DNA of 62,728 nucleotides, the filler included, from Diploschistes diacapsis (taxonomy: Eukaryota): the NCBI GenBank assembly GCA_023645945.1. It is 24 parts of 24 records of this genome, joined end to end, with 100 filler letters (N's around TTAATTAATTAA, not from the genome) between each part and the next. Parts side by side here need not be neighbours in the genome. Positions count along the whole stretch, not along the records: positions 1,751 to 24,388 come from JALAIB010000277.1; 23 more parts are not named here. The stretch is one strand, 5' to 3'. A program made the position numbers and the translations under genes. The notes under the pieces were generated by a model. It was not told the DNA's origin. It ran no database searches and saw only the letters and a program-made list of their open reading frames with translations. Each line of letters opens with the position of its first letter. Within the stretch, counting starts at the first letter, position 1. This document shows, one piece after another, positions 1,751-50,678 of this stretch.

Positions 1751-2526
1751 GGATCTACGTGGTCTCAACACCACATTTTTAGTATATACGCGTATATAGA
1801 GCTTCAAATTCAGTACATTTCTACTAAAAACCTTGCAAATTGTAAAGTAACTTAAATTTCTATGTAAATTGCTAATAAATCTATGTACCTCGGCAATCGC
1901 AATCGCGGCGGTTAAGCCAGATTACCACTAAAATTGTTTACTAGCGGCTCCACAAGGCAGAATAACACAAGCCCTTTTTCCAACTACTTCGTACAGGCCT
2001 TGACCACAGCAATAATTTCTCCAATCGAGCACACCCTTAGGCCCTCAGGCTGTGGGTACTGGAAAGGCTGATAGCTTGCGCGACTATGCGGCATTGACTC
2101 AGCTGGCTTAGGACATGCGTAAAAAAGGGAAAACCTCCGCGGGTGCTTTAACACCCCATTGTCCGCGTTGAAATGATTGGTTTGTGGCACATTGCTCTTT
2201 GTTCTGACTATAGTGACTGCAGCATCTGCAATGCAACCGCAATGGCGTCTTCACGCTGCATTTCGTAGGAATACATCCTCGGTACAGCGAAGATAAACCT
2301 AGTACGATAGAAGGACGACAGGCCTATCTTTCTAGCATCCTGACATATGATATTTACTGTCACGTGTTGCTATTACCATGACTTCCAGGCTCCATGGCTA
2401 AACTGAAATTTCACTATATCTACTGTCTCTTGGAATAAGCTAAGCTTTAGGATCAAAACACTGTGGACTTTGCGTATTTCCTTATAATATTAGAGAACCG
2501 CTAGCATATCCTGTTTCGATCTGAGA

Positions 2527-4118
2527 ATGGCTAATCAAGCAGACTCTCCGAAAAATAGTCACAGAGCGCTTCCCAATCCTAGTACAGACCCCGAGACTAT
2601 GTCAAGCAACGACCACAACAAGACACAAGTATTTGACCGAACAGTTGCCGATTTTGACGGCGAGGACGATCCAGAGAATCCTTTCAACTGGAACAAGAGA
2701 TACCGCTGGTCCCTTGTTATCTTGCTTTCTCTCATGACAACCCTTGTGTAAGCCTCCTTTATGCTTGTTACCAGCGAAATGGCTTCTGAAGAACCGAAGA
2801 ACACTGGCCACGGTGATATGTGCTCCGGCAGCACCACAGATACTGCAAGAGTTTGAGTCTACAAATTCTTACGACTCCATTCTGCTTGTCTCAATCTGGG
2901 AGCTCGGAGAGGTCTTCGGTCCGCTTCTCATGGCTCCTCTGTCGGAACTCTACGGCCGCTTGTGGACCTGGCATATTACTTGTGGACTTTTCGTTATCTG
3001 CTCAGCTGGGACTGCACTGAGCACCAGCTTGAACATGGTCATAGCGTTCCGCTTCCTGGATGGCGTTTTCACTCCAATGGTCTTGAGCGCAGCAATGACA
3101 AGCGATGTTTTCCGGCGCGAAGAGAGAGGCCGAGGTATGGCCGTCGCGAGCTTCGCTCCTCTCTTCGGCCCAACCTTCGGCCCTACTGTTGGAGGCTATC
3201 TAGCTTTAAAAGCTGGCTGGCGGTGGACGGCATGGGTTATCACCATTGCAGCCGCCGTGATTGAGGTCGTACTATTATTCTTCTTGCGGGAGACTGGGGC
3301 TTGCAAGATATTAAAAGACAAGGCCCGAAAACTTCGGAAACAGACTGGCCGGGATGATATCAGATCAGTATATGAACTTGATATCAAGCCCAGAAATCTC
3401 TTTATGCGGTCTATGTTTCGACCTTTACGATATTTGCTTTTCTCGCCCATTGTCGCGCTGATGTCGCTATATACAGGCGTAATCTATGGATATATGTATT
3501 TAGTTCTCACAACGATGACCAATGTTCTTGAACAGACCTATGGCTTCTCGGCGGGCAGTGCAGGTCTATCTTTCATTGCCATGGGTCAGTCACTCCGATA
3601 TTCATATACAAACGCTGACAGCTTGTTTAGGGCTCGGGTTAACATGTGGAGCCTTGGTCTGTTTCTTCTTACTGGATCGGGTAGTGAAAAGTCAAGCCTC
3701 GAAAAGTGAGCCGCTGCCACCAGAGAGTCGACTTCCATTCCTGTTTATAGGTAGTTTTGTCACGCCTGCAGGACTCTTCCTTTACGGCTGGGCCACACAC
3801 AACGCGATTCACTGGATTGCACCGCTCGTTGGAACCTTCCTAATTGGACTCGGACAACTGGTTACGAATACACCGATCCGCACTTACTTAGCTGATGTGT
3901 TCTTGGAATACGCGGCCTCTGCTATTGCGGCAAACATCTTTTTTCGGACTATTACAGGTGCTCTATTACCACTTGTTGCACCTCCACTATACGACAATCT
4001 TGGGCTTGGGTGGGGCAATTCTCTTTTAGGATTCATCGCCTTAGCACTAATACCTCTGCCGCTTGTGTTCATGAAGTACGGAGCGCGTCTACGAGCGAGG
4101 TTTCCTATGAAAGACTAG
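2527..4118 (+). CDS. MFS transporter, DHA1 (drug:H+ antiporter) family, spliced
   Basis: DFDGEDDPENPFNW motif, motif A APLSELYGR, DVFRREERGRG, GPTVGGYL and PPESRLP, with many hydrophobic segments over three ORF pieces separated by GT-AG introns. Confidence 0.92.
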
Positions 4119-4197
4119 GTCATAGCATCTCGGAGAGCGTGCACAAACTCTAAGTGCGCACCGTTTGTTTCAGAAGCCTACTTATCGGATCCCTGAA

Positions 4198-6168
4198 CTA
4201 GTTTCTATAAGAGGTAAGAGCGCCGACTTCTCGCACCGGTCCTCGATAGGACTTGTGCGCCCAAATGATATAATAGGCGATGCTCCAGATAAGTGCAGCG
4301 CCGAACAGTAGTGAGCCATAGTTCATGGTCGCAGCCTCCACTGCGGCCATCGAAGGCCAGAAGCCGAAGAAGAACAAAATAGAAAGATACATTAGAGCGC
4401 AGATGTTGATCACAATACCAAGGCCACCTTTTATATGCCATGGGCCCCATGTGAATGGTTTTTGTGACAAGGCACGCTCCTCTCCAATCTCGCCGCGTAC
4501 GCGACGGTACAAGAGAAGACTGCAGGAAAGGATGTAAGTACCACTTAGACTTCCGAGACCAAGGCTGATAATGTCGTTGAACACAGCACTGCTACCGATG
4601 TTGATCAAGGCGAAGAGAGCGGCTAGAGTGACCCCAACAATTAAACATCTCAGCGGAATCGTTGACCGAGCATCGATCTATTCAGATAATCTATATCTGT
4701 TTGTGTCAATAGAACTCGAAGACTTACCTTGATGAGTTGTTGCCAGCCCGGCAGCCCACGATCGCGCGCGAATGCCCATAGCATCCTCGAGGCCGTAGCA
4801 GTCGTGGTCAGGCAAGCGCAGAATTGCAGAACGATTATCAAGGATATCAGAATCGCAGCGCCGGTATTAGAACCCATGACTCGTGCTAAGATCGGAATAT
4901 AGGGGAAAATTGCCTCAGCCTCGTCTTCGCTGATTGTGCCTGCACTGAACAAGAAAGCAATAATCAAGGCAAGGGCCATCATGCCATTGAAGAAAGTGGA
5001 AAAAACCATGGATCTGGGAACATTGATACTGGCTCGGCGGATCTCTTCCGACATCTAACAGTATAAGCGTTCGAGCGTGGCTACAGATAAGACTCGACTC
5101 ACATGTACAGCAGCATCTGCACCTGAAGAGCGTTAGATGCATGACCAGAGGCTCGAATTTCGAACACTTACCGATGAACGCTGCTGCAACTCCAGCCAGG
5201 CCTACGAAGAATGACAGGCCCTGCGACGGCCAGCCCCCACCGTTGTTGAAAATAGTGAAGACATCTGCGGCTGTGGCTTTCGGTGCCAGATAAAGAATGG
5301 AGATGAATATCGCGAAGAAGCCGAGTATATGGATAATCAAGATACCAATTTCGATTGCTGGTAACGCTTTGCTGAGAACAGAATTGAAGAAGAGTACGAG
5401 CGCCAAATAAGCCCACATGAACAATGTCTCTTGCCATCCAGTCGGACTGTAATCCGGGACCATTTGTGCAATGAGAGCTTGGGTCATGCTTCCAGTGAAG
5501 AACGACGTGGCCGCTATGCTTCCCAACCATCCTAGGACGCTCAACCAGCCTAAACAGTCAGGTACGCTGCTTCGAAATAGAGAAACAAGACCCGTCTCAC
5601 CAGAAACATAGCTCAGGAATATCTTGCAATTGTCAGGGGCTAGAACGGATACCCAATGGTACTGGCCTCCCGAGGTAGGCATCATTGAAGCCATCTCTCC
5701 AAGGGAGATATAGACGCATGTCATACCAACCCAAGCAAATATGTATCCATAAATAATGCCAGCTGGGCCGCCACTTTTCGGTCGTCAGCTTCAACATCGA
5801 GAATATACGCTTTGGGTCTACTACTTGGTAAGCCCCAGCGTAAAGGATCTACAACAATATTTTAGCCCAATATTCAGCAGCTATAGATGATAGGATTCCG
5901 ATTACAGCAAGACGCTCTCCCACAGTGACACGACAACGGAAGAGAAACCGATCATACTAGTCAAGTCGAAATTGCGCTGCTCGAAGTGAGTTTTTGAACT
6001 TGGAAGGGTAGGCTCGAGATATAATACTTTAAGAACCTGTTTCTTTCCTGTTCTTGCAAGTTCAGAGCGATCGAGCTCAAGATCCGAAGTTGCTATATGT
6101 TCTGTGGAGTAGCCAGCACGGCGCACCGCGACGCTTCCGTCTTTGAGCGAGTGTAGTTCGTTGTCCAT
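4198..6168 (-). CDS. Amino acid-polyamine-organocation permease (GABA/choline permease-like), multi-intron
   Basis: LARTGKKQVL, SLGEMASMMPTSGGQYHWV, MSEEIRRASINVPRSM, ASRMLWAFARDRGLP, and a C-terminal YRGPV. Confidence 0.92.
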
Positions 6169-6656
6169 CTCGGCTAGGTTGCCTGTCTTGAGCAGCATGA
6201 AAGCGCAGAACGATTCGCAAAGCAGCGACACAGCGCTTATATGTTAAGAATCAATATTCTATCGAGAAGAAATAAAGTTGGAAGCATAATAAGACGCTCG
6301 TACTTGGAAGTGAGAGATTCAGATGAGCGGTCCGACACCACACTTGCCGCGGTCTTCAGGGTTACAAGGCTGCACGATCTGTGTGACCCTGACAAGCAAA
6401 ACCTTCTTCGTTTAGAAGTGCCATGCTGTACAAAGCGACCCTGTAAGATTATAGTCACCCACTAGCCTAAGCTTATTGGTGGAGTTCGAGATCGACGCAT
6501 CCTATCCTGAACAATAGGGAGCAAGGAAGGCAAGACAGCTCTTGCCTCTTAACATGGCTTATTTACAATAGGTAAGCAAGCAGGTCCTATCCAATCTTTT
6601 TCTCGCGTTTCTCGAGTCTTGCTTCTCGTCCCTTGCCTTCCTTTGTATTTTCACCT

Positions 6657-8008
6657 ATGTCTACGCCCGAAGCTCCCCTTTCTGGGGTATGGCCTGGGAC
6701 GGGCATTGGTGCCTGGGTTCTACTAATCGTCTCCGCCATGGCTGTTTTAACGAGGCTTCTCACGAAATGGTCCATCGAGCGCACCTTGCATCCAGATGAT
6801 ATGCTAGTCTTAGGTGCGTTTGTATGTACAAAGCCTTCAAAATACAGCAGCCCGTGCTGGTGCTGACAGGTAAGTAGTTGGCGAGCACCGGGTCCGTCGC
6901 TGCCGTGCACGTTCAGTCTCTGAATGGCCTGGCGATATCACAGTCCGACTCAGGCGCCTCGGAAATTTCGAACTGGATGAAGGTTTGTCAACGTCTATGA
7001 ATAATCCGTATAGCGGGTTTTCTGATGCGTCTGGAAGGCCTTCTACGCTATGGAGCTGTTATATCTTGCAACTCTGTGCTTGGCCAAGCTCTCGATAATT
7101 GCTCTGCTGCGCAAGATCTCGCCCGATCAGCTACATAGAAGACTTGGATTATGTCTGGGCGGACTGATCGTGCTCGGAAGCATCGTCTTCGGATTAACAG
7201 CCGCGTTCCAGTGTCAAGTTCCTGAAGTTTGGAATATCCAAGGAGGATCTTGTCTCGAAGAGGTGAATAATCACGCTCCTGTCTCAATTCTCTTATTCTG
7301 AATCAATGAACAGGCAACCTTCTGGCGGCTGACGGCTGTTTTCGAGATTCTTCTCGATATCGGCCTGGTTGCTCTTCCACTGGTTATTGTGATCCCACTA
7401 AATATGAAGACAAACAAGAAGTTTCTAGCGCTCTCGTCCTTCTCAGCCCGTGTGATGTAAGTCGAAGATCCACCATCTACCTACTCGAAGCTCACAAAGA
7501 CAGCGATATTGCGGCGGCGGCGATTCAACTATCTTTTACCCAAGGATTCGTATCCTCCGATCCGATCCTCGAGCTCTGGGAATGGGTTCTTTTGGCGCAA
7601 ATCACGCAGTGTGTCAGTATCGTGACCTCCTGCGTGCCATTCCTTCGTCCATTCCTGGAGAGCATGTCTATTGGCTTCATGCTAACGGCGGACATGGAAC
7701 GGCGTGCGGATAATGCGAGCTATGGGCGGAGCTACAACCATACCGGCAGCAAGAATTCCTCCAAGGCACCTACGAGAAACGGAACAGTACCCTCAGTGGA
7801 AAGAGGGACGCGAACAGAGCCCAACGACACGGCAATCTTTGCACCTCAGATCGACCCTCGGATGCACAGAACCAATCGAGATTGGTACGAGCTGAGACAC
7901 GGTCAGGGAAGGCGGAGCGAAGGAGAAAGCGAGGGTGGCAGAGGTGGGGCTTCAACTAGCCAGGACAGTCAATTAAGGATCCTGGAGGAAGTGGAGCTAG
8001 CTCATTAG
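6657..8008 (+). CDS. PTH11-like fungal rhodopsin-domain membrane protein (no CFEM domain seen), spliced
   Basis: RTLHPDDMLV, ELLYLATLCLAKLSII, AFQC, EILLDIGLVALP, QCVSIVTSCVPFLRPFL, and a hydrophilic C-terminal tail. Confidence 0.85.
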
Positions 8009-8089
8009 CTCAGACTACGTGATATTTGGATTATTTATTTATGCCATCCTTTTATATTCATTTAGTCATGGTTTTTCGAATCGTAATAA

Positions 8090-8490
8090 TTTTTACCTGC
8101 AGATACTTCGCCACGTATTTGCAGCCCCTCGTAGTGTGGCATCCTTTCCTGCGCTGACGATCTGTCAAAGAAACCCACCAGCAGTTGAAATTTCTATTCT
8201 TAACGCTAAAAACTAAAGTCCAAAAAAATTGAACGTTTAAATAAGCTTTTGGCTCGTTTGATTATTGAATTGAACGGATAACATTCAGACCACTTAACCT
8301 ATTTTTTAAACCAGGATTTCGAAACCTGAGTAAAATAAGAACAATAAATATTAACAAATAGTCGCAGTTGTTGTTGTTATTAAAATGGAGATAAATACTG
8401 TTATAAATTATGTTTAGACACTGTTTAGCGCGGTATAATATCATTATTAACACGATCGATCTAGACACAAAGGGGTAAATTTATACTCGG
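8090..8490. mobile_element. Short AT-rich, probably RIP-degraded repeat relic
   Basis: Abrupt AT-rich patch. Motifs TTTTACCTGCAGAT and GCATCCTTTCCTGCGCTG also occur, in the same order, in the repeat contig at about 27309-27391. Confidence 0.5.
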
Positions 8491-9584
8491 ATATCCACGG
8501 GCTAGATGGAAAGGCAGCCATCGTTCTCTCCCCCGTCGTAAAGCAGCTTTTACTGGCTACTAACATACTTGCGCCATCTGCACCCAGATGGGTTTTGCCC
8601 GTTAACACCAGGGAGCGGGATTAGCCGCATTATGTTTCCAGTCAGACCGTTCAGCCTTTCCTTTCTTTCCACTCATGAGTTGTCAGAAGAAGGCATCTCA
8701 AGGCAAGCCCTAGCCTCTCCACAACACCTCAGACGACGGCCTGCAGCGGGCCCGTCGGGTATCGATTGTCCAATAAACTCCCTTGACCCTTTTCGCAAGA
8801 AGATGGTGTGAGGCAATTCATCTTCCTTCCTCCAGTCTTACTTGTCAGCTTACGGGCGCGGTGGGGTCAATTTCAGCCGTGAACTGAAGGACTTGCCTGC
8901 CGATACCACCCCACGATGGCCCAGGCATACGCACTGCCTGCCTCCTTGCCTCCTTGACCCATTGCAGGGGCATCAGAGAATACGGGACGGCACGGCACGC
9001 AGTGCATGTCACATCACCTTCCCGCCGCTGTGGCTAACGAGCCGCAATTACCGACTACCGCCTGCATATCTAGGACTTCACATGGGGACGATCTTGATTC
9101 TGTCCGGGATTTCTTCGCTCGACAGGGCCTTCATTTCGTCTGCATGTCAGGCAAATTTTGGTGGAGACGCTCTTTCCCATATCAGAAGGTGCAAATTGCC
9201 TATACCTCCTGGGCTGCTGACGCCAGAGGCTAATGCAAGTCATAGACGGAGGGCTCTCAACCTCTCACCGCCGCAGAGGGTGAAGGGGCGGCGATCCGGG
9301 TGCCAAAGATCTTCAATCGCTAATATCTTGCATGCTGAGAACAAGGTCATACAGTTCTACAGCATTGCGAGAGAGCGAAGAAAGAGGTTACTTCGATCAA
9401 CTGAAGGGGGAAGAACATGGTTGAGGATATCTATAAAAGCCATCCTCATCATTCGGGCATGGTTTGAGATCCCCGAAGTGATCATCTCGCTCGCTCGATT
9501 TTTCTTTGCTTGCTCTGCTCGTCAGCTACCTTCCGGCTGCCTCAGAAAATCACATTCTCGTAATCCCCCAAAGGCACACCCACA

Positions 9585-10036
9585 ATGACACCCTTCGCCT
9601 TCAAAGCTCTCGCCCTTGCGGCGACGCTCCTCTGTGTCGTGGTCGCGGTGCCGATAACACCACGTAAGACACCGACATTCTCTTTTTTTTTTTAAGGGGG
9701 GGGGGGGGGCCAAAATGAAGCGATGTCTCGCGATGGCGAAGGAGCTAATTCGAACCTTTGAAAGCACTTGCACAAGATCTCGCCAGGAAATCCGCGGGTA
9801 GTTACACGCCCAATGCCCTGTACCAGTACGACCCAACCAAAGCCAAAGTCACGGACGAGGTAGAGGTGAGAGAGGTGGACAGCACTTGGGAGCCACAGGG
9901 CATGTATCGGTACGAGGACGGGAAGGCGGTGAAAGTGGTGGATAAAGTTGAGGCTAGGCAAGCAAGTACCACCTGGACACCACCGGGCATGTTAAGATAC
10001 CAGGAGGGGAAGGAAGAGGCTCAAGATCAAGCCTAA
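9585..10036 (+). CDS. Secreted repeat-peptide precursor (candidate dikaritin/fungal RiPP precursor), 116 aa, join(9585..9663,9765..10036)
   Basis: Exon 1 encodes signal peptide MTPFAFKALALAATLLCVVVAVP. The intron GTAAGA...GCTAAT...AAG splices in phase with ORF 9758-10036. Three 28-29 aa repeats have cores YTPNALYQY, WEPQGMYRY and WTPPGMLRY. The gene lies about 370 bp upstream of a DUF3328 gene. Confidence 0.85.
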
Positions 10037-10403
10037 AGTAGATACGGGCTGGCAGAAGGCAAACACGATAAGATAGATAGATAGCTGGCTGGGGGAAGCT
10101 GCAACAGGCGCTCTTTAGGTAGTCTGTTGGGATGTACAGATAGCAGTTCATGTCATCTTTTCAGATTCTTTGACTCCAGTACTGGGCAAGAAAATTTTCG
10201 TAAGCAGAAGCCAGCTAGCTTTTGCTCATGTAGGAGACCCAGGTGCCCGCAGCAGCAATCCACCGGGGTCTTTTCGAAGTACCACCACAGCCCGCCCTCC
10301 AGCTCGAAGATCTGCCCCCCCTCCAGCGCCATGGGCCTGATAAAATCTCCTCACACCGCCGGGCTCTAAAGTCTCTTCTTCTCCCACCGTGCCACCACGA
10401 AAA

Positions 10404-11619
10404 ATGGGCCATCGCTATACTTCTCTTTCGCCAGACTCCGAAGGCCCCATCGTCAAAGGCCCCCCCCCTCTTTTTAAATCTGGCAATATCCCTTTCCGCC
10501 TGATCTTCGAATTAGTCGTTGTCTTGCTCTGTCTCTTTCTGCTCCTCCGATCCCAATGGGAGCCCTCATGCGTTGAGAAATGGTCAATCTACTGTATGCC
10601 GCTTTTTTCCGTTTCCCCTGTAACATCTTCCACCGCGAGAAAAGAGGATACGAGAGCTGACCGCCCCTGTAATGTTGTGTTTTTGCAGCGCCGATCCTCC
10701 CCGTCGTGACCAAGCCGCCCCAGACGATCAAGTTCAATGGTTCATTCGCGCCGAGCGCGTATATGGGCCCGCCGAGCACGGAAGTAGATAGGGCATGGGC
10801 GGAGCTTACGGAGCGTAAGTCCCTGTTCTTTTCCTATCTTGCTCTGTCTGTCTTTCTCTGTCCTCGACACAAGTACTCGAAAGGCGGAAACGCCACGGCG
10901 GAAGAGAGAATGTACCCTGAAAGCTTGCCTGCTTTCGTCGTGAGGTGCAAAAGACTGATACTGTTTGTTGAGATCGCAGGCGGCGCCTTCCGTATTTCAG
11001 CGGAGGATATGGTGCGTATCGGCGAGCCGCTCACTGCCGCGCAGTGGCCGGCCAAGTACGGCGGCGGGTATGTGGGGTATGTCGAGGTGTTGCATCAGTT
11101 GCATTGCTTGGTATAAAACTATCCCATTGCTTCTTTGGAGGGCTTCTGAGTGCTGGAGCTCGAGTAGGGGTGATAGTCGAAGTGATATTTGCTGATTCCG
11201 GGCATGATCCTAGAGGTTCCTCTGGCAGCATCTGTATCCGGAGTATTATATGAACAGGACGAGCTCGTGGGGCGATTCGGACGAGTGGCGGCTGGAGCAT
11301 GCTAGTAAGTGCATCATTAGGCTTCTGATGTGGAAGGGTTTCGAGCTTGTGCGAGAATCTCTCGATGCTGATAACGCCGAATATAGATCACTGCGCGGAT
11401 CTGCTGCGCCAGAAGATCATGTGTGACGCCGACGTCGGTCTGATCCCGCAGCTCTGGATCCGCGACCGATCCATTCCGTGGCCTGTTTTCTCCACGGTGC
11501 ACCAGTGTCGAGATTTCGACGCCGTACTGGACTGGGTGGACGAGCATCAGGTGAGGGTTCCGGAGGGTTTCGACCTTGTAAAGCCTAAAGACGCGTACGA
11601 GCTGCCGAGTCCTCCATAA
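10404..11619 (+). CDS. DUF3328/UstYa-family oxidase, join(10404..10593,10689..10814,10980..11110,11214..11304,11387..11619)
   Basis: N-terminal TM helix, YSP, GPPSTEVDRAW, two HxxHC motifs (VLHQLHCL; EHANHCADLLRQKIMCDAD) and HQCRDFDAVLDW. All four introns are GT-AG and in phase. Confidence 0.95.
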
Positions 11620-11745
11620 GAGACTTGATACGTCGCTCAGAGTATTACATAGATCTTTAAGCCGTTCATTGGAGAAGAGCTGCACAACTTGCAATGATAT
11701 ATCAAAGCACTATAGCCATTCCTGGCTGGCAGCTGCTTGTTGGCT

Positions 11746-12651
11746 TCATACGGTAGGAAATTTTTCGTCGGCCCTCTTTGGTCGCCAGAGCCATTCCACC
11801 TCAAGCGGGTAGTTCTCTTCCAGATGTTTCCACTCTTCATTGCCTTCGTGCTCTTTGGGCCGCTTCACGATGCAGTGCTCGACATGCTGGAACCCGAACT
11901 GTCGGTAGACATGACTGCCAAAAAATGAAGCTTCCACGAAAGCCTCGATGCCCAGTTCGTCTGCCCGCTGGACGCCCCACTGTACCAACATCTTTGCAAC
12001 ACCACGCCGCCGATAAGCTGCACAGACGCCCAGAGTTCCGAGCCCTGCGCATGATCAGTAGCCGTTCCACATGTTGCGAATTGACGCGGTGTCAACAGGT
12101 AGAGGCAGAGTCGAGAAAACGTAACCAACTTACAGGCGTTTGGTTCCCGACATCTCTGCGCTTGCCGTACAAGACGGTCGTTCATCAAGAACGAGGTGTA
12201 TTCGCGGATAAGGGAGCCTTCAGGGTACCATTTGGCCTCAACACGCGGCGGCCCGTTGGGAAAGGGCGCTTCCGGATAGAACACCCACCTCGAAATGCTT
12301 GCGTACAAGTAAGCATTCATGATCATTCAGTGTATAGAAACAATGTGGCAATAGTTCAAATCATATACAAAATCCTATTCGAATGTCGACGAACTAGTTG
12401 AGATGCAAAACTTACCCAATGATCCGATCGGTATCGGTGTCCACCACGTTCATCCATTGCTCATTAGGATCTGCATCCCAGCGTTCCTGCCAGTTGCGTA
12501 TTGCATAAGGTTTGCCCTTTGGGTCATTGGTACCTGCACCGGGCAGCATCAGGTCGCAGTATGGATGCCGAGGGTGGCTGTAGGCATCAAATAGACAGTC
12601 CACGATCTGGGAAATGTCGGCTCTCTCGCCAGCCCTAAGCTGCAAAGGCAT
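11746..12651 (-). CDS. GNAT-family N-acetyltransferase, two introns
   Basis: The spliced product gives WLGTLGVCAAYRRRGVAKMLVQWGVQRADELGIEAFVEASFFGSHVYRQFGF (acetyl-CoA motif A, RRRGVA, plus motif B) and an N-terminal VVDTDTDRIIG. Confidence 0.9.
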
Positions 12652-13108
12652 CGTGGACGTGTTTTAGGGAAGAAGTAGACTGGGCTAGAAAGAAAGTGCT
12701 GGGGGAGCAACGGCGGGTATATATAACCCCGGCATGACCGAAAGCAGCAGGCGCACTGCGAGGTGAATGGAACACCGGACAATCTCTGGATAACCCGTTA
12801 TATAAGTAAACTCCGATGAGGCTACGATCTTATAAAGATTTATCCTGCTCTTTAAATATCTTGTGTTTATAAGTTTTAATATTTCTGACGCTATCCTTTT
12901 GCAGGATCAGTATTATGTAATCTTAAATTTGTCAAAATATAAGCCACACAAGCCACACCACACGAATTTATCCCACACATGCATTGTTTGTCAAGACTTC
13001 AATGCCTGAGTGCACAAGGTCGTTGTCTTCCTTTTGCTGAGGCTATTGCCATGCGATCCATGATGACTTCGCACGCAGGTTCTCAGCTTCAGTTTCCACC
13101 GCCCTAGG

Positions 13109-14740
13109 ATGGCTACGCCGGTGCGGCCGGGACCAAGTCCGATAGCTTCCCCACGAACTCCGCAACGAGGGATATCTTCCACGTTCTCCTCGCCGGGAAG
13201 CTTTCGTCCTGAAGACGACGCAGTGATCTTCGAGTTCGGGTCCAGGTACCTTCGAGCTGGTTATGCCGGCGACAGTCTGCCCAGATGCACGCTGGGCTTC
13301 GGTCCCGAAGAGTCGAGGCGACTGGGTGACTATCGAAGATGGCTCCCCGGTTACGAGGACCGAGTCAGACAGGCAAAGAAGCTTGAGGATTGGGCCGCTG
13401 ACTACGAGTTGTGGCGGCTTGATCTTCGGGAGACCGATTTGGGCCTGGTTGAAGATAAGATAGAGCGCGCCGTGCGCGATGCCTACTCAAGGGTACTTGT
13501 TCTGGATTCCAAATCAAGGAAAGCCATGCTCATCGTCCCGCCTTCTTTGCCGCATGCTTTGCTCTCGACCATTCTTTCCCTGCTCTTCCACAACTTTCAA
13601 TTGCCGACCGTTACTTTACTCCCGCCCCCAACTATGGCCGTGGTAGCCGCTGGTCAGCGCTCGGGTCTTGTAGTGGATATCGGGTGGCATGAAACGAGAG
13701 TGACTATTGTCTATGAACTTCGTGAGGTTCGGGAATACAGAAGCGTCCGTGGCATGAAGTTGTTGGTCAATGAGACCGGCAAGCTACTTCGCCGAACCTT
13801 GGATCCCAGTGCATCTGGCGGAGTGGACGAGGAAATGAGGATGACTGTTGACTTCTCATATGTGGAGGAGCTGCTTACTAGAGTCATATGGTGTCAGAAG
13901 CCCAGCGTCTCTACTTTAGAAGATAGCATAAAAGATCCAGCCATCTCAGGGAATAACGCTCAGCGACCTCGAGACGATTCTAAGATATCAATGCGCCTTC
14001 CGCCACCCTCTGACTGGCAGGTCGAAATCCCTTTCTCTTCTCTAAGCAAACCGGTTGAAACGGCTTTGTTTGCAGAGCCGAGTAGGTTGCGCGACCAGGA
14101 TGACCACGAGCATCCCCTTCACTACCTGCTCTACGAGGCGCTGGTGTCTCTGCCGCACGACATCCGTTCCGTTTGCATGTCGCGGATCATGTTCACTGGC
14201 GGCGGCGCCAACATACCAGGCCTAAAGACGAGGCTCCTCGATGAACTCATCAACATGGTCAAAGAACGGGGTTGGGATCCGGTATGGGGGAAAGCGGCGG
14301 AGGAGCAGCGGCGAAGGAGAGCAGAGCAAGCAAAAGCCATGGAGCAAAGAAAATGGAAGATACGAGAGAGCGCAACGAAAGATGCAGAGGGCGATGACGA
14401 GGACTCGCCGCCTCGCAGAAGAGCGGCTTTCGAAGACCAGGAACCGGATCCCCTGCAGGATAAACTGCGGCAACGGAACGCCAAGCGTACGAAGTCGAGC
14501 GTATCCGGCGTCATCAGGGGGCTGGAGACGTTGGGTCCGTGGGCTGGAGCGAGCATCACGGCCGCGCTCAAGGTCAAGAGTGCTGTCGAAATAGACAGAG
14601 ACGTGTTCTTGCAGCACGGACTCGCGGGTGCAAAACGGCATACCGACGTTGTTCCCCCGAAACCAAAGAGCCATACTGCCACGCTGGCTCGGATGAATAT
14701 GACAGACAGTGGCACATGGACCCTTGGTACATGGGCATAG
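13109..14740 (+). CDS. ARP10: Actin-related protein, dynactin Arp10/Arp11 (Neurospora RO7-like)
   Basis: FEFGSRYLRAGYAGD, SGLVVDIGWHET, DIRSVCMSRIMFTGGGANIPGLKTRL, GPWAGAS; single exon of 543 aa. Confidence 0.85.
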   Translation: MATPVRPGPSPIASPRTPQRGISSTFSSPGSFRPEDDAVIFEFGSRYLRAGYAGDSLPRCTLGFGPEESRRLGDYRRWLPGYEDRVRQAKKLEDWAADYELWRLDLRETDLGLVEDKIERAVRDAYSRVLVLDSKSRKAMLIVPPSLPHALLSTILSLLFHNFQLPTVTLLPPPTMAVVAAGQRSGLVVDIGWHETRVTIVYELREVREYRSVRGMKLLVNETGKLLRRTLDPSASGGVDEEMRMTVDFSYVEELLTRVIWCQKPSVSTLEDSIKDPAISGNNAQRPRDDSKISMRLPPPSDWQVEIPFSSLSKPVETALFAEPSRLRDQDDHEHPLHYLLYEALVSLPHDIRSVCMSRIMFTGGGANIPGLKTRLLDELINMVKERGWDPVWGKAAEEQRRRRAEQAKAMEQRKWKIRESATKDAEGDDEDSPPRRRAAFEDQEPDPLQDKLRQRNAKRTKSSVSGVIRGLETLGPWAGASITAALKVKSAVEIDRDVFLQHGLAGAKRHTDVVPPKPKSHTATLARMNMTDSGTWTLGTWA

Positions 14741-14807
14741 CTAAGCTAACAAGGCTAGGAATTCAGGGCATTCCAGTCGTAACATTGAGAAGTGTACAAT
14801 AATCTAA

Positions 14808-48835: not shown

Positions 48836-49493
48836 NNNNNNNNNNNNNNNNNNNNNNNNNNNNNNNNNNNNNNNNNNNNTTAATTAATTAANNNNNNNNN
48901 NNNNNNNNNNNNNNNNNNNNNNNNNNNNNNNNNNNAATAAACACGTTCTTTTTTACGAAGATAAAGTCGTATTTATATATAATTAACTCGCTTACCGCTT
49001 ATCGTAAATTTAACGAACGGCGCTTTTAAAGCTCGCCGCTTACGAGAATAAACGCGAGTATCGAGCGATAACGAAAACCCGCTCGCCGCTTACGCGAATA
49101 AACGCGATCAATGAGCATATCACGTGACCCCCGTCCCGTGATTAACCTATATACAAACAAAGCTGGGACGTGCCAAGTCTGGTACTTGGATCGTAACAAT
49201 TTATAACGCGTAAAAAACGTCATCGCGTTTTTAAAATCGAGAAGGATGAAAAGAAAGAAGATAGATTCGATTCGGATCGATTAGATTCTAATTATGATAA
49301 ATAAATTATATCTAAAAACCGTAGAATGTTAACGGTAGTGATTTGAGGTGGCCGGAATCTGGGGGTGGCCGGAATCCCCGTCAAACACGTTAGTCTAATA
49401 GGGAAACAGTGCTTCGGGGTTCCTGAAAGCATTGTGTTCAGTCTTGGCTCAGTGGGATACCACTACCTATTAGGCACTACCCCCGCTGTTACA

Positions 49494-50140
49494 AATACGA
49501 AAACAATAGATACGAAAACAATAGATACGAAAACAATAGATACAAAAACAATAAATACAAAAACAATAGATACAAAAACAATAGATACAAAAACAATAGA
49601 TAGGAAAACAATAAACATAAAATTAATAGATTTAAAAGTAATAAATTTAAAAGAAGTAGATTCGAAAGTAATAGGTTTAAAAGCAATAGGTTCAAAAGCA
49701 GTAGGTTCAAAAGCAGTAGATTCGAAAGCAGCAGATGCGAAAGCAGTAGGTTTGAAAGCAGTAGATTCGAAAGCAGGAGGTTTGAAAGTAGTAGGTGCGA
49801 AAGCAGTAGGCGCGAAAGTAGTAAATGCGAAAGCAGTAGGTTTAAAAGCAGTAGGTTCGAAAGCAGTAGATTCGAAAGCAGTAGATACGAAAGCAGTAGA
49901 TGCGAAAGTAGTAAATGCGAAAGCAGTAGGTTCGAAAGCAGTAGGTTCGAAAGCAATAGGTTCGAAAGCAGTAAATGCGAAAGCAGTAGATTCCAAAGCA
50001 GTAGATTCGAAAGCAGTAAATTCGAAAGCAGTAGGTCGAGAGTAGTAGGTCGAGAGCAGTAGATTCGAAAGCAGTAGATTCGAAAGCAGTAGATTCGAAA
50101 GCACTAGGTGCGAAAATGAATTTAAAAAGCAGTAGATGCA
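49494..50140. repeat. 15-bp tandem repeat (consensus GCAGTAGATTCGAAA), about 43 units
   Basis: Clear 15-nt periodicity; units toward the left carry more G-to-A changes (ACAATAGATACAAAA). Confidence 0.95.
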
Positions 50141-50678
50141 AAAAAAGATGCCACGTAATAATTCAGTTCAGTTCAGCCAATCAAACCCTTGACTGATACT
50201 TTCGGAGTTAATTTCTTATCTACGGTTTTTTCTACGCCCATAAACACACTAATATGCCAATAAGTTATAGTCCTGCGTGTTACGATCCAAGGTACTAGGC
50301 GGTAGTACTTGGCACGCAACAGCTAGTCGGGCACTTCCCAACCATTCCTTATATATAATCCAATTAGGGTAACAGAGGTCACATGACGAGTAAAAGGTCT
50401 AAAAAACCATTCTATTTAGTTATAAATAAAAAGAAAGAACGGTAATTCTACTTATTTATTTATTTATTTTACTAAAAAAGCTATTAATTATATAAAAACG
50501 TCGCCATAACCTTTATAAATTTAGAACGTGTTGATTTTCATAAATATCCTTAATTATTACTCGAGATCAATTTATATTNNNNNNNNNNNNNNNNNNNNNN
50601 NNNNNNNNNNNNNNNNNNNNNNTTAATTAATTAANNNNNNNNNNNNNNNNNNNNNNNNNNNNNNNNNNNNNNNNNNNN

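Follow-up and report, generated by a model that had tools for sequence, protein, structure and literature searches.

We describe a compact three-gene locus in a 62,728-nucleotide stretch of DNA from the fungus Diploschistes diacapsis (assembly GCA_023645945.1; 24 joined parts, with positions 1,751 to 24,388 coming from JALAIB010000277.1), which we call the window. The genes are, in order, one for a small secreted repeat protein (hereafter the precursor), a UstYa (DUF3328) oxidase gene on the same strand, and a GNAT acetyltransferase gene that converges on it. We judge this locus to be probably a UstYa-dependent fungal cluster for a peptide made on the ribosome and modified after translation (RiPP), similar to the dikaritin and epichloecyclin clusters, and provisionally regard the precursor core as an undescribed peptide type. 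The evidence comes from the gene structures themselves, from the recurrence of a precursor-like gene beside UstYa in related metagenome loci, and from core types that change with the UstYa tree.

The precursor gene and its repeats

The precursor gene starts with an ATG at 9585 on the + strand and consists of two exons, whose spliced product is 116 aa. Exon 1 (9585..9663, 79 nt) holds 26 codons and one further nt, and thus has a phase-1 end; its product has a charged start and then about 15 hydrophobic residues, a signal-like N-terminus as judged from composition. The 101-nt intron (9664..9764) has the donor GTAAGA, a CTAAT-type branch-like site and an AG acceptor, and use of another possible acceptor at 9777 would give a 112-aa product. 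Exon 2 (9765..10036, stop codon included) encodes three repeats of about 28 aa. Read without splicing, the frame meets a stop after 13 intron codons, about 39 from the ATG, so that splicing is needed for the repeats to be encoded. At 9675-9709 the intron has 11 T in a row and then 14 G; homopolymers of this kind readily acquire length errors in assembly, and because these are intronic the precursor reading frame is independent of their length.

Each repeat has a putative core, all on the + strand: S-Y-x6-Q-Y-D-P for the first and most diverged repeat (9800..9835), T-W-x6-R-Y-E-D for the second (9884..9919), and T-W-x6-R-Y-Q-E for the third (9971..10006). A single Arg or Arg-Lys precedes every repeat. 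The best internal local alignment of the protein scores 91, against 21.5 +/- 4.2 for shuffled versions (maximum 47; 0 of 500 reach 91), while Tandem Repeats Finder detected no repeat at the DNA level in the precursor gene. Repeats 2 and 3 agree at 13 of 24 residues, five of these through different codons, and at 46 of 72 bases; the residues kept across units are Thr-Trp, Pro, Gly-Met, Arg-Tyr and Gly-Lys. A repeat so clear in the protein while the DNA has diverged points to an old duplication with retention of particular residues, and fits long maintenance of the motif.

The UstYa gene

The UstYa gene begins 367 bp beyond the precursor gene and occupies 10404-11619 of the + strand, with five exons encoding 256 aa. 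Exon 1 (10404..10593) supplies a short N-terminal tail and one hydrophobic helix at about residues 31-48 (nt 10494-10547). The DUF3328 profile PF11807 matched exon 2 (10689..10814; E 8.9e-5, profile positions 52-90), exon 3 (10980..11110; E 3.8e-8, positions 95-137) and exon 5 (11387..11619; E 1.7e-19, positions 168-220), collinearly along the profile. Both HxxHC motifs are intact. The first (HQLHC, 11093-11107) closes exon 3, and the second (H-A-N-H-C) straddles the exon 4/5 junction, beginning at 11298 in exon 4 (11214..11304) and ending at 11394 in exon 5, where the alignment has two more conserved Cys after it. A PDB sequence search with exon 5 returned nothing meaningful.

Enzymes of the DUF3328 family form homodimers and cross the membrane once, with a lumenal domain; their activity requires O2 and electrons, and their HxxHC...HxxHC pair forms a binuclear copper centre (PMC12435403). 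AprY, the asperipin-2a cyclase, is likewise reported to depend on copper and O2 (PMC12435403). By analogy with CctR (PMC12435403), the window UstYa is predicted to have the same single-pass topology.

The three gene models have canonical GT..AG introns throughout. They bear out the trio as the earlier note had described it, namely a spliced three-repeat protein of 116 aa (9585-10036) upstream of and co-oriented with an intact five-exon DUF3328 gene carrying both HxxHC motifs, and a GNAT gene converging on the latter about 130 bp further on (126 bp by our measure, on the minus strand). The note's statement that tyrosinase and methyltransferase genes are absent also held for the window open reading frames (ORFs) that were scanned, these being selected long ORFs and not all frames; the same scan gave no nonribosomal peptide synthetase, polyketide synthase, SET or S8 domain.

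Precursor and UstYa genes are paired in related loci

We collected 29 related loci by scanning metagenome contigs with an alignment of the last UstYa exon of the window and three database homologues. Eighteen of them include the interval that lies about 1.4-2.2 kb upstream of UstYa exon 5, the other 11 being too short. A two-step search of this interval, first for small repeat ORFs and then for the motif, found in 14 of the 18 assessable loci (L001, L003, L004, L007, L008, L009, L011, L012, L014, L018, L020, L022, L023 and L024) a small gene on the opposite strand to UstYa that bears an [R/K/A]-Tyr core motif, repeated at least twice in 12 of the 14. Many loci are near-identical samplings; counted as independent lineages, about 8-9 have a precursor and two do not.

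Eight of these loci gave a gene model with a hydrophobic start (L001, L003, L007, L008, L012, L014, L018 and L022). In the best model of each, exon 1 measures 67-82 nt, specifies a hydrophobic N-terminus and has a phase-1 end; a 44-57-nt intron and then one to four repeats come after it. The relatives and the window have one architecture in common: a signal-peptide-like exon with a phase-1 intron after it, and then repeats built around a conserved [R/K]-Tyr. On this comparative evidence the precursor-UstYa pairing is well supported.

At L018:4120-4625 (- strand), and at the same position in L020, the small secreted gene has only one recognisable core (I-V-A-Y-T-N-D) and lacks clear repeats, and so may represent a version of these precursors with a single core.

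Precursor cores vary with the UstYa tree

A tree built from the joined translations of the UstYa exons unites the window with L001-L004 (ultrafast bootstrap 96, SH-aLRT 98); the window protein sits on a long branch and has at most 57% identity to that of any related locus. The predicted precursor core types track this tree. The L001-L004 clade has the core T-Y-[S/G/T]-G-[V/I]-F-L-N-R-Y-E-E, with KR in the spacers; the clade of L007, L008, L009, L011, L012 and L014 has V-V-N-x-I-V-[K/R]-Y-T-[D/N]-D, with KR on both sides; and the L022-L024 clade has C-x-G-S-A-C-V-I-R-Y, with K-P-R-Q junctions.

Window cores 2 and 3 are equal in length to the L001 type (T-Y-x6-R-Y-E-E) and match it in their end residues; in short form, the window pattern that the cores of this clade fit is T-[Y/W]-x6-R-Y-E-[D/E]. 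A pattern composed from both sets has 11 matches when the window and all loci are read in six frames (564,164 residues); ten lie in these precursor ORFs, and the remaining one, which contains a stop codon, is background. Because the pattern was written after both sets had been seen, this result is supportive and is no independent test. The L001 and L003 precursors differ by one whole repeat and two conservative core changes, with a pN/pS of 0.36 over 89 codons.

Relatives of the precursor in protein collections

With the precursor as query, a word-indexed homologue search gave a sole match, the window's own ORF, there called as a 92-aa protein (P0001). Searched without a profile, a set of 1.84 billion representative proteins yielded six matches at E <= 0.001, P0001 among them. 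One other, P0005 (118 aa, E 1.7e-4, three matched stretches), looks related to the window precursor: it consists of three near-identical units with S-T-W-E-S-Q-G-I-Y-K-Y-L-G-K, its unit motif is S-T-W-E-x-Q-G-[M/I]-Y-[R/K]-Y, and the period and register are those of the window units, with window core 2 aligning to its repeats. Where the window units have a single Arg or Arg-Lys, P0005 carries V-R-E. The other four matches (P0006-P0009) were set aside as spurious; P0007-P0009 are long repeat proteins, and the two that are 1005 aa long look bacterial. A metagenome scan with the precursor alignment yielded 106 pattern matches, of which none was confirmed.

Evidence against a peptide cluster, and two alternatives

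A possible objection to our interpretation is that the 116-aa product is simply an ordinary secreted protein, small and repetitive, with a role as an effector or in the wall or in stress, and that UstYa acts on a substrate encoded elsewhere. Several observations weigh on this side. First, neither the window precursor nor P0005 had a significant tblastn match in the 29 loci (best E 0.38, for the window precursor), and homology to the L001-type precursors therefore rests on architecture, position and the post hoc motif. Second, the window precursor is co-oriented with UstYa, whereas the two genes are divergent in all relatives. Third, four of the 18 assessable loci (L005, L006, L028 and L029) have no visible precursor-like gene. 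Fourth, DUF3328 genes are numerous and serve non-RiPP pathways too, non-ribosomal ones among them (PMC12048977). The lack of dibasic sites in the precursor, taken up below, points the same way. We also count against a peptide cluster that the models of the trio are known here from DNA sequence alone, and that the likeness of P0005 to the precursor is one of protein sequence.

An ordinary secreted protein is nevertheless hard to square with a gene of like architecture at the same distance from UstYa in most of the assessable loci, or with a sister clade that has the core spacing and flanking residues of the window. The motif residues, moreover, were retained while the DNA diverged, and other biosynthetic core genes were not found in the scanned ORFs. 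We consider this alternative improbable.

The remaining difficulties concern the state of the precursor. Its mature part (89 aa) has 0 KR, 0 RR and 1 RK, unlike known dikaritin and epichloecyclin precursors, and repeat 1 is without the Thr, Trp and Arg of the pattern. The missing KR/RR sites make the release of the cores a weak point of our interpretation. A second alternative would take these features as signs that the locus is a RiPP cluster by descent that is now inactive or decaying, its Kex2 sites lost, its first repeat degenerate, and its precursor gene inverted from a shared promoter. The precursors of L001, L007, L009, L012 and L014 have indeed kept KR. Such clusters, moreover, do die, to judge from L004, apparently a copy in decay of the cluster found in the sister clade. 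Compared with L001:3968-5106, L004:4818-5198 is without 1139 bp spanning the 5' ends of both genes; in L001 this segment holds precursor exon 1, the shared intergenic region and the area of the first UstYa exon. The last UstYa exon of L004 also has a Tyr in place of the relatives' conserved His.

In the window itself, all three ORFs are intact, the splice signals are canonical and both HxxHC motifs are present. Monobasic junctions also recur in intact genes, since P0005 and the L022-L024 precursors are likewise without KR and have Arg-Glu or Pro-Arg-Gln junctions. Among the contig pieces listed for the metagenome runs X2 and X3, all but two have <2% other letters, although none of these lies over the precursor gene. 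Decay of the locus seems to us quite improbable, and a UstYa-dependent peptide cluster is our preferred interpretation.

The GNAT gene

The GNAT gene (11746..12651, - strand) has exons at 12651-12416, 12297-12134 and 12044-11746 that encode 232 aa; Acetyltransf_1 matches its last exon (E 1.1e-5). It is the only copy in the window and lies downstream of UstYa, on whose upstream side are the precursor gene and then a PF20684 gene. A search for longer GNAT homologues gave no match, and a PDB sequence search with exon 3 gave nothing meaningful.

The GNAT might be a tailoring enzyme of the cluster. Its convergent position so close to UstYa is one reason to think so; another is the parallel with Clan R2 of the Parmeliaceae (Pasinato and Singh 2025, PMC12048977), which like the window comes from lichen fungi and pairs one ustY homologue, with two HxxHC motifs, with adjacent GNAT genes. 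GNATs also have bacterial precedents for N-terminal acetylation in RiPP pathways, cited by PMC12048977. If the GNAT did belong to the cluster, the locus would be of the GNAT-flanked Clan R2 type. We set the window beside Clan R2 by its published description, and on that description the two differ. In Clan R2 two conserved GNAT copies flank ustY, together with further accessory genes (PMC12048977); the window has a single GNAT, and the other accessory genes named for that clan were not seen in it. Its authors detected no conserved repeated regions in Clan R2 (PMC12048977), whereas the window has a clear repeat precursor. The related loci also speak against membership: a GNAT counterpart was found in 0 of 29 (tblastn, E <= 1e-4), and acetyltransferase Pfam matches in 0 of 110 ORFs across seven of them (E <= 1e-5). 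Membership depends solely on adjacency plus the Clan R2 parallel (PMC12048977), and we regard a tailoring role as rather doubtful.

The earlier note had called the locus dikaritin-type and had looked to homologues of the precursor that stay next to DUF3328 genes, with or without a GNAT. The pairing stood, with its like-architecture gene beside UstYa in 14 of 18 loci and its cores that follow the tree. The Kex2 sites expected of such a cluster (0 KR/RR) and the GNAT (0 of 29) did not, and the linkage did not emerge from tblastn of the precursor, which was null in the 29 loci.

Comparison with known systems

The closest systems in architecture are the asperipin-2a-type single-UstYa dikaritin cluster and the epichloecyclin cluster. 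As in the window, asperipin-2a has a secreted multi-core precursor, a Tyr in each core and a single adjacent DUF3328 gene, and is without tyrosinase or methyltransferase (cluster make-up from PMC12048977). The core sequences are unrelated, however, and the window precursor lacks KR/RR; the reductase and multidrug transporter of asperipin-2a (PMC12048977) are not adjacent in the window, where a GNAT is adjacent instead. The likeness to asperipin-2a is one of cluster architecture.

The epichloecyclin cluster of Epichloe festucae (gigA, gigB, gigC and kexB) encodes GigA, a small secreted protein with imperfect repeats of about 27 aa (PMC10540207), a period near the 28-29 aa or so of the window. 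Each GigA repeat has one invariant Tyr in a short core and then a spacer (the 'follower'), and a single DUF3328 protein cyclises the core (PMC10540207), joining the invariant Tyr to its first residue (PMC10540207). GigA units are bounded by LxKR and the cluster includes a SET methyltransferase and a kexin; the window precursor is without LxKR, and neither enzyme was found in the scanned ORFs. The cores differ as well, being of the I-N-F-K-I-P-Y-T type in GigA and T-W-x6-R-Y in the window.

Ustiloxin (UstA/UstYa/UstYb/UstQ) and phomopsin (PhomA/PhomY) resemble the window in their repeated Tyr cores and DUF3328 oxidases, and their signal peptide would correspond to its signal-like N-terminus (PMC7329392). 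They need a tyrosinase and have several UstY paralogues, methyltransferases and Y-x-I-type cores between KR, none of which was found in the window. In ustiloxins, phomopsins and asperipin-2a alike, the ring is closed at Tyr (PMC7329392).

As for membership in a known class, the window has the UstYa with its HxxHC pair, the several repeated cores and the adjacent precursor of a dikaritin-type cluster, and is without the Kex2 dibasic flanks. The class called KEP is defined by repeats separated by KR/RR Kex2 sites (Umemura 2020, PMC7329392), which excludes the window precursor. New core types beside DUF3328 are very numerous, with 838 KEP types counted and DUF3328 nearby for 22% (PMC7329392). We found no description of these [R/K]-Tyr precursors in the literature consulted, a result that extends to published descriptions; because that catalogue was not checked at the sequence level, 'undescribed' is provisional.

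A proposed pathway

The genes, domains, motifs and repeats, and the linkage of precursor and UstYa in relatives, are observed directly; a plausible order of events built on them runs as follows. The 116-aa precursor, with its three cores of the form [S/T]-[Y/W]-x6-[R/Q]-Y-[E/D/Q], would enter the secretory pathway at the endoplasmic reticulum by its N-terminal signal peptide. There the lumenal domain of UstYa, with its HxxHC...HxxHC site (two copper ions in characterised members), would oxidatively modify each core. By analogy, the most likely chemistry would be a cross-link from the invariant Tyr to an upstream core residue to give a macrocycle, and one candidate partner is the conserved Trp/Tyr eight residues before it. 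Cleavage close to the single Arg/Lys that is conserved ahead of each repeat may then release the cores, which would be trimmed. Finally, in what is the least supported step, the GNAT might acetylate an amine of the released peptide.

A broader proposal combines these elements: the locus would represent an undescribed family of UstYa-linked precursors, in which the lineage of the window has exchanged Kex2 dibasic sites for single-Arg junctions and has recruited a GNAT. As a whole we hold this unlikely, and mention it for what it would entail. The family would be recognised by its signal-peptide exon with a phase-1 intron after it, and by one to four repeats (usually at least two) built around an invariant [R/K]-Tyr. 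The products of the window's lineage would be Trp/Tyr macrocycles, N-acetylated and about 10-12 residues in size, of a kind so far not seen in fungi. The family would also cover the sort of precursor that was missing from two lichen ustY clans in the 2025 survey (PMC12048977). That survey found no conserved repeated motifs in the two clans examined, and discussed the precursor as a mystery.

Surroundings of the locus

The window is fungal; a gene-rich island occupies roughly 2-24 kb (GC about 0.5), while the rest, to 62.7 kb, is AT-rich (GC about 0.3). In the AT-rich tracts (24000-62728 and 1-2000), GC is 0.24-0.39 in nearly all 1-kb windows and there are hardly any long ORFs; no Pfam match passed the curated cut-offs there, apart from low-complexity ones at 49347-50167. 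These tracts, which flank the gene island, are consistent with heavily mutated repeat relics. Rfam gave no match in 7800-13200, and no tRNA was found in 1-24500.

A TATA-like box (TATAAAAG, 9432..9439, + strand), read off the sequence, lies 146 bp 5' of the precursor ATG. Immediately 5' of the precursor is a gene, partially modelled at 6576..8005 (+ strand), for a membrane protein with a fungal-rhodopsin domain (PF20684; E 3.2e-9 at 7026-7298 and E 1.6e-5 at 7302-7457). PF20684 genes occur near UstYa in four of the seven related loci that were Pfam-scanned (L007:11739-12212, L014:7812-8871, L018:7167-8323 and L022:6523-7830), the copies being only about 29% identical where comparable. This gene may be a recurrent neighbour, but because PF20684 is a large family, its recurrence beside the pair may be due to chance. 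Genes for an amino-acid permease and an MFS transporter lie farther upstream, 4-7 kb from the pair, and on the other side, 3' of the GNAT, the Pfam scan identified genes for an actin-related protein, an SPB4-type helicase and ribosomal protein SA.

Neighbours differ among the related loci. L001 has an amino-acid permease gene, as do L003 and L004 by tblastn, and genes for cytochrome P450, flavin-containing monooxygenase or cupin proteins occur farther out in related loci. A full-size ABC transporter gene converges on UstYa at L007:6326-10042, L009:4313-7975 and L012:6324-10039, all in the clade with the V-V-N-x-I-V-[K/R]-Y-T-D-D core, which suggests a dedicated exporter; in its place the window has the more distant MFS transporter and permease.

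One lichen metagenome run, which may be the source of the sequence, spans 2500-14800 in a single contig. X2 and X3 have short contig pieces over parts of this interval, and among the pieces listed none reaches the precursor gene. Contig depth over the 35 bases at 8122-8156 is about 5000, against 94, in all four runs compared; the matches invariably have 3-5 mismatches, and their flanks are unrelated. Probably some high-copy sequence resembles these bases by chance at the 80% threshold, and the depth is not a feature of the locus.

Significance

The RiPPs that fungi make with UstYa enzymes include potent inhibitors of microtubule assembly, the ustiloxins and phomopsins, and lichen fungi have many UstYa genes. 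The architecture described here, at 1.4-2.2 kb from a UstYa gene, provides a concrete rule by which to search for lichen RiPP precursors, and one that also reaches precursors without Kex2 sites, which KEP-based miners miss. The three-gene set of the window is small enough for direct heterologous expression. The locus would add to the known UstYa-dependent clusters rather than reveal a new kind of system, and as such it is useful as a lead.

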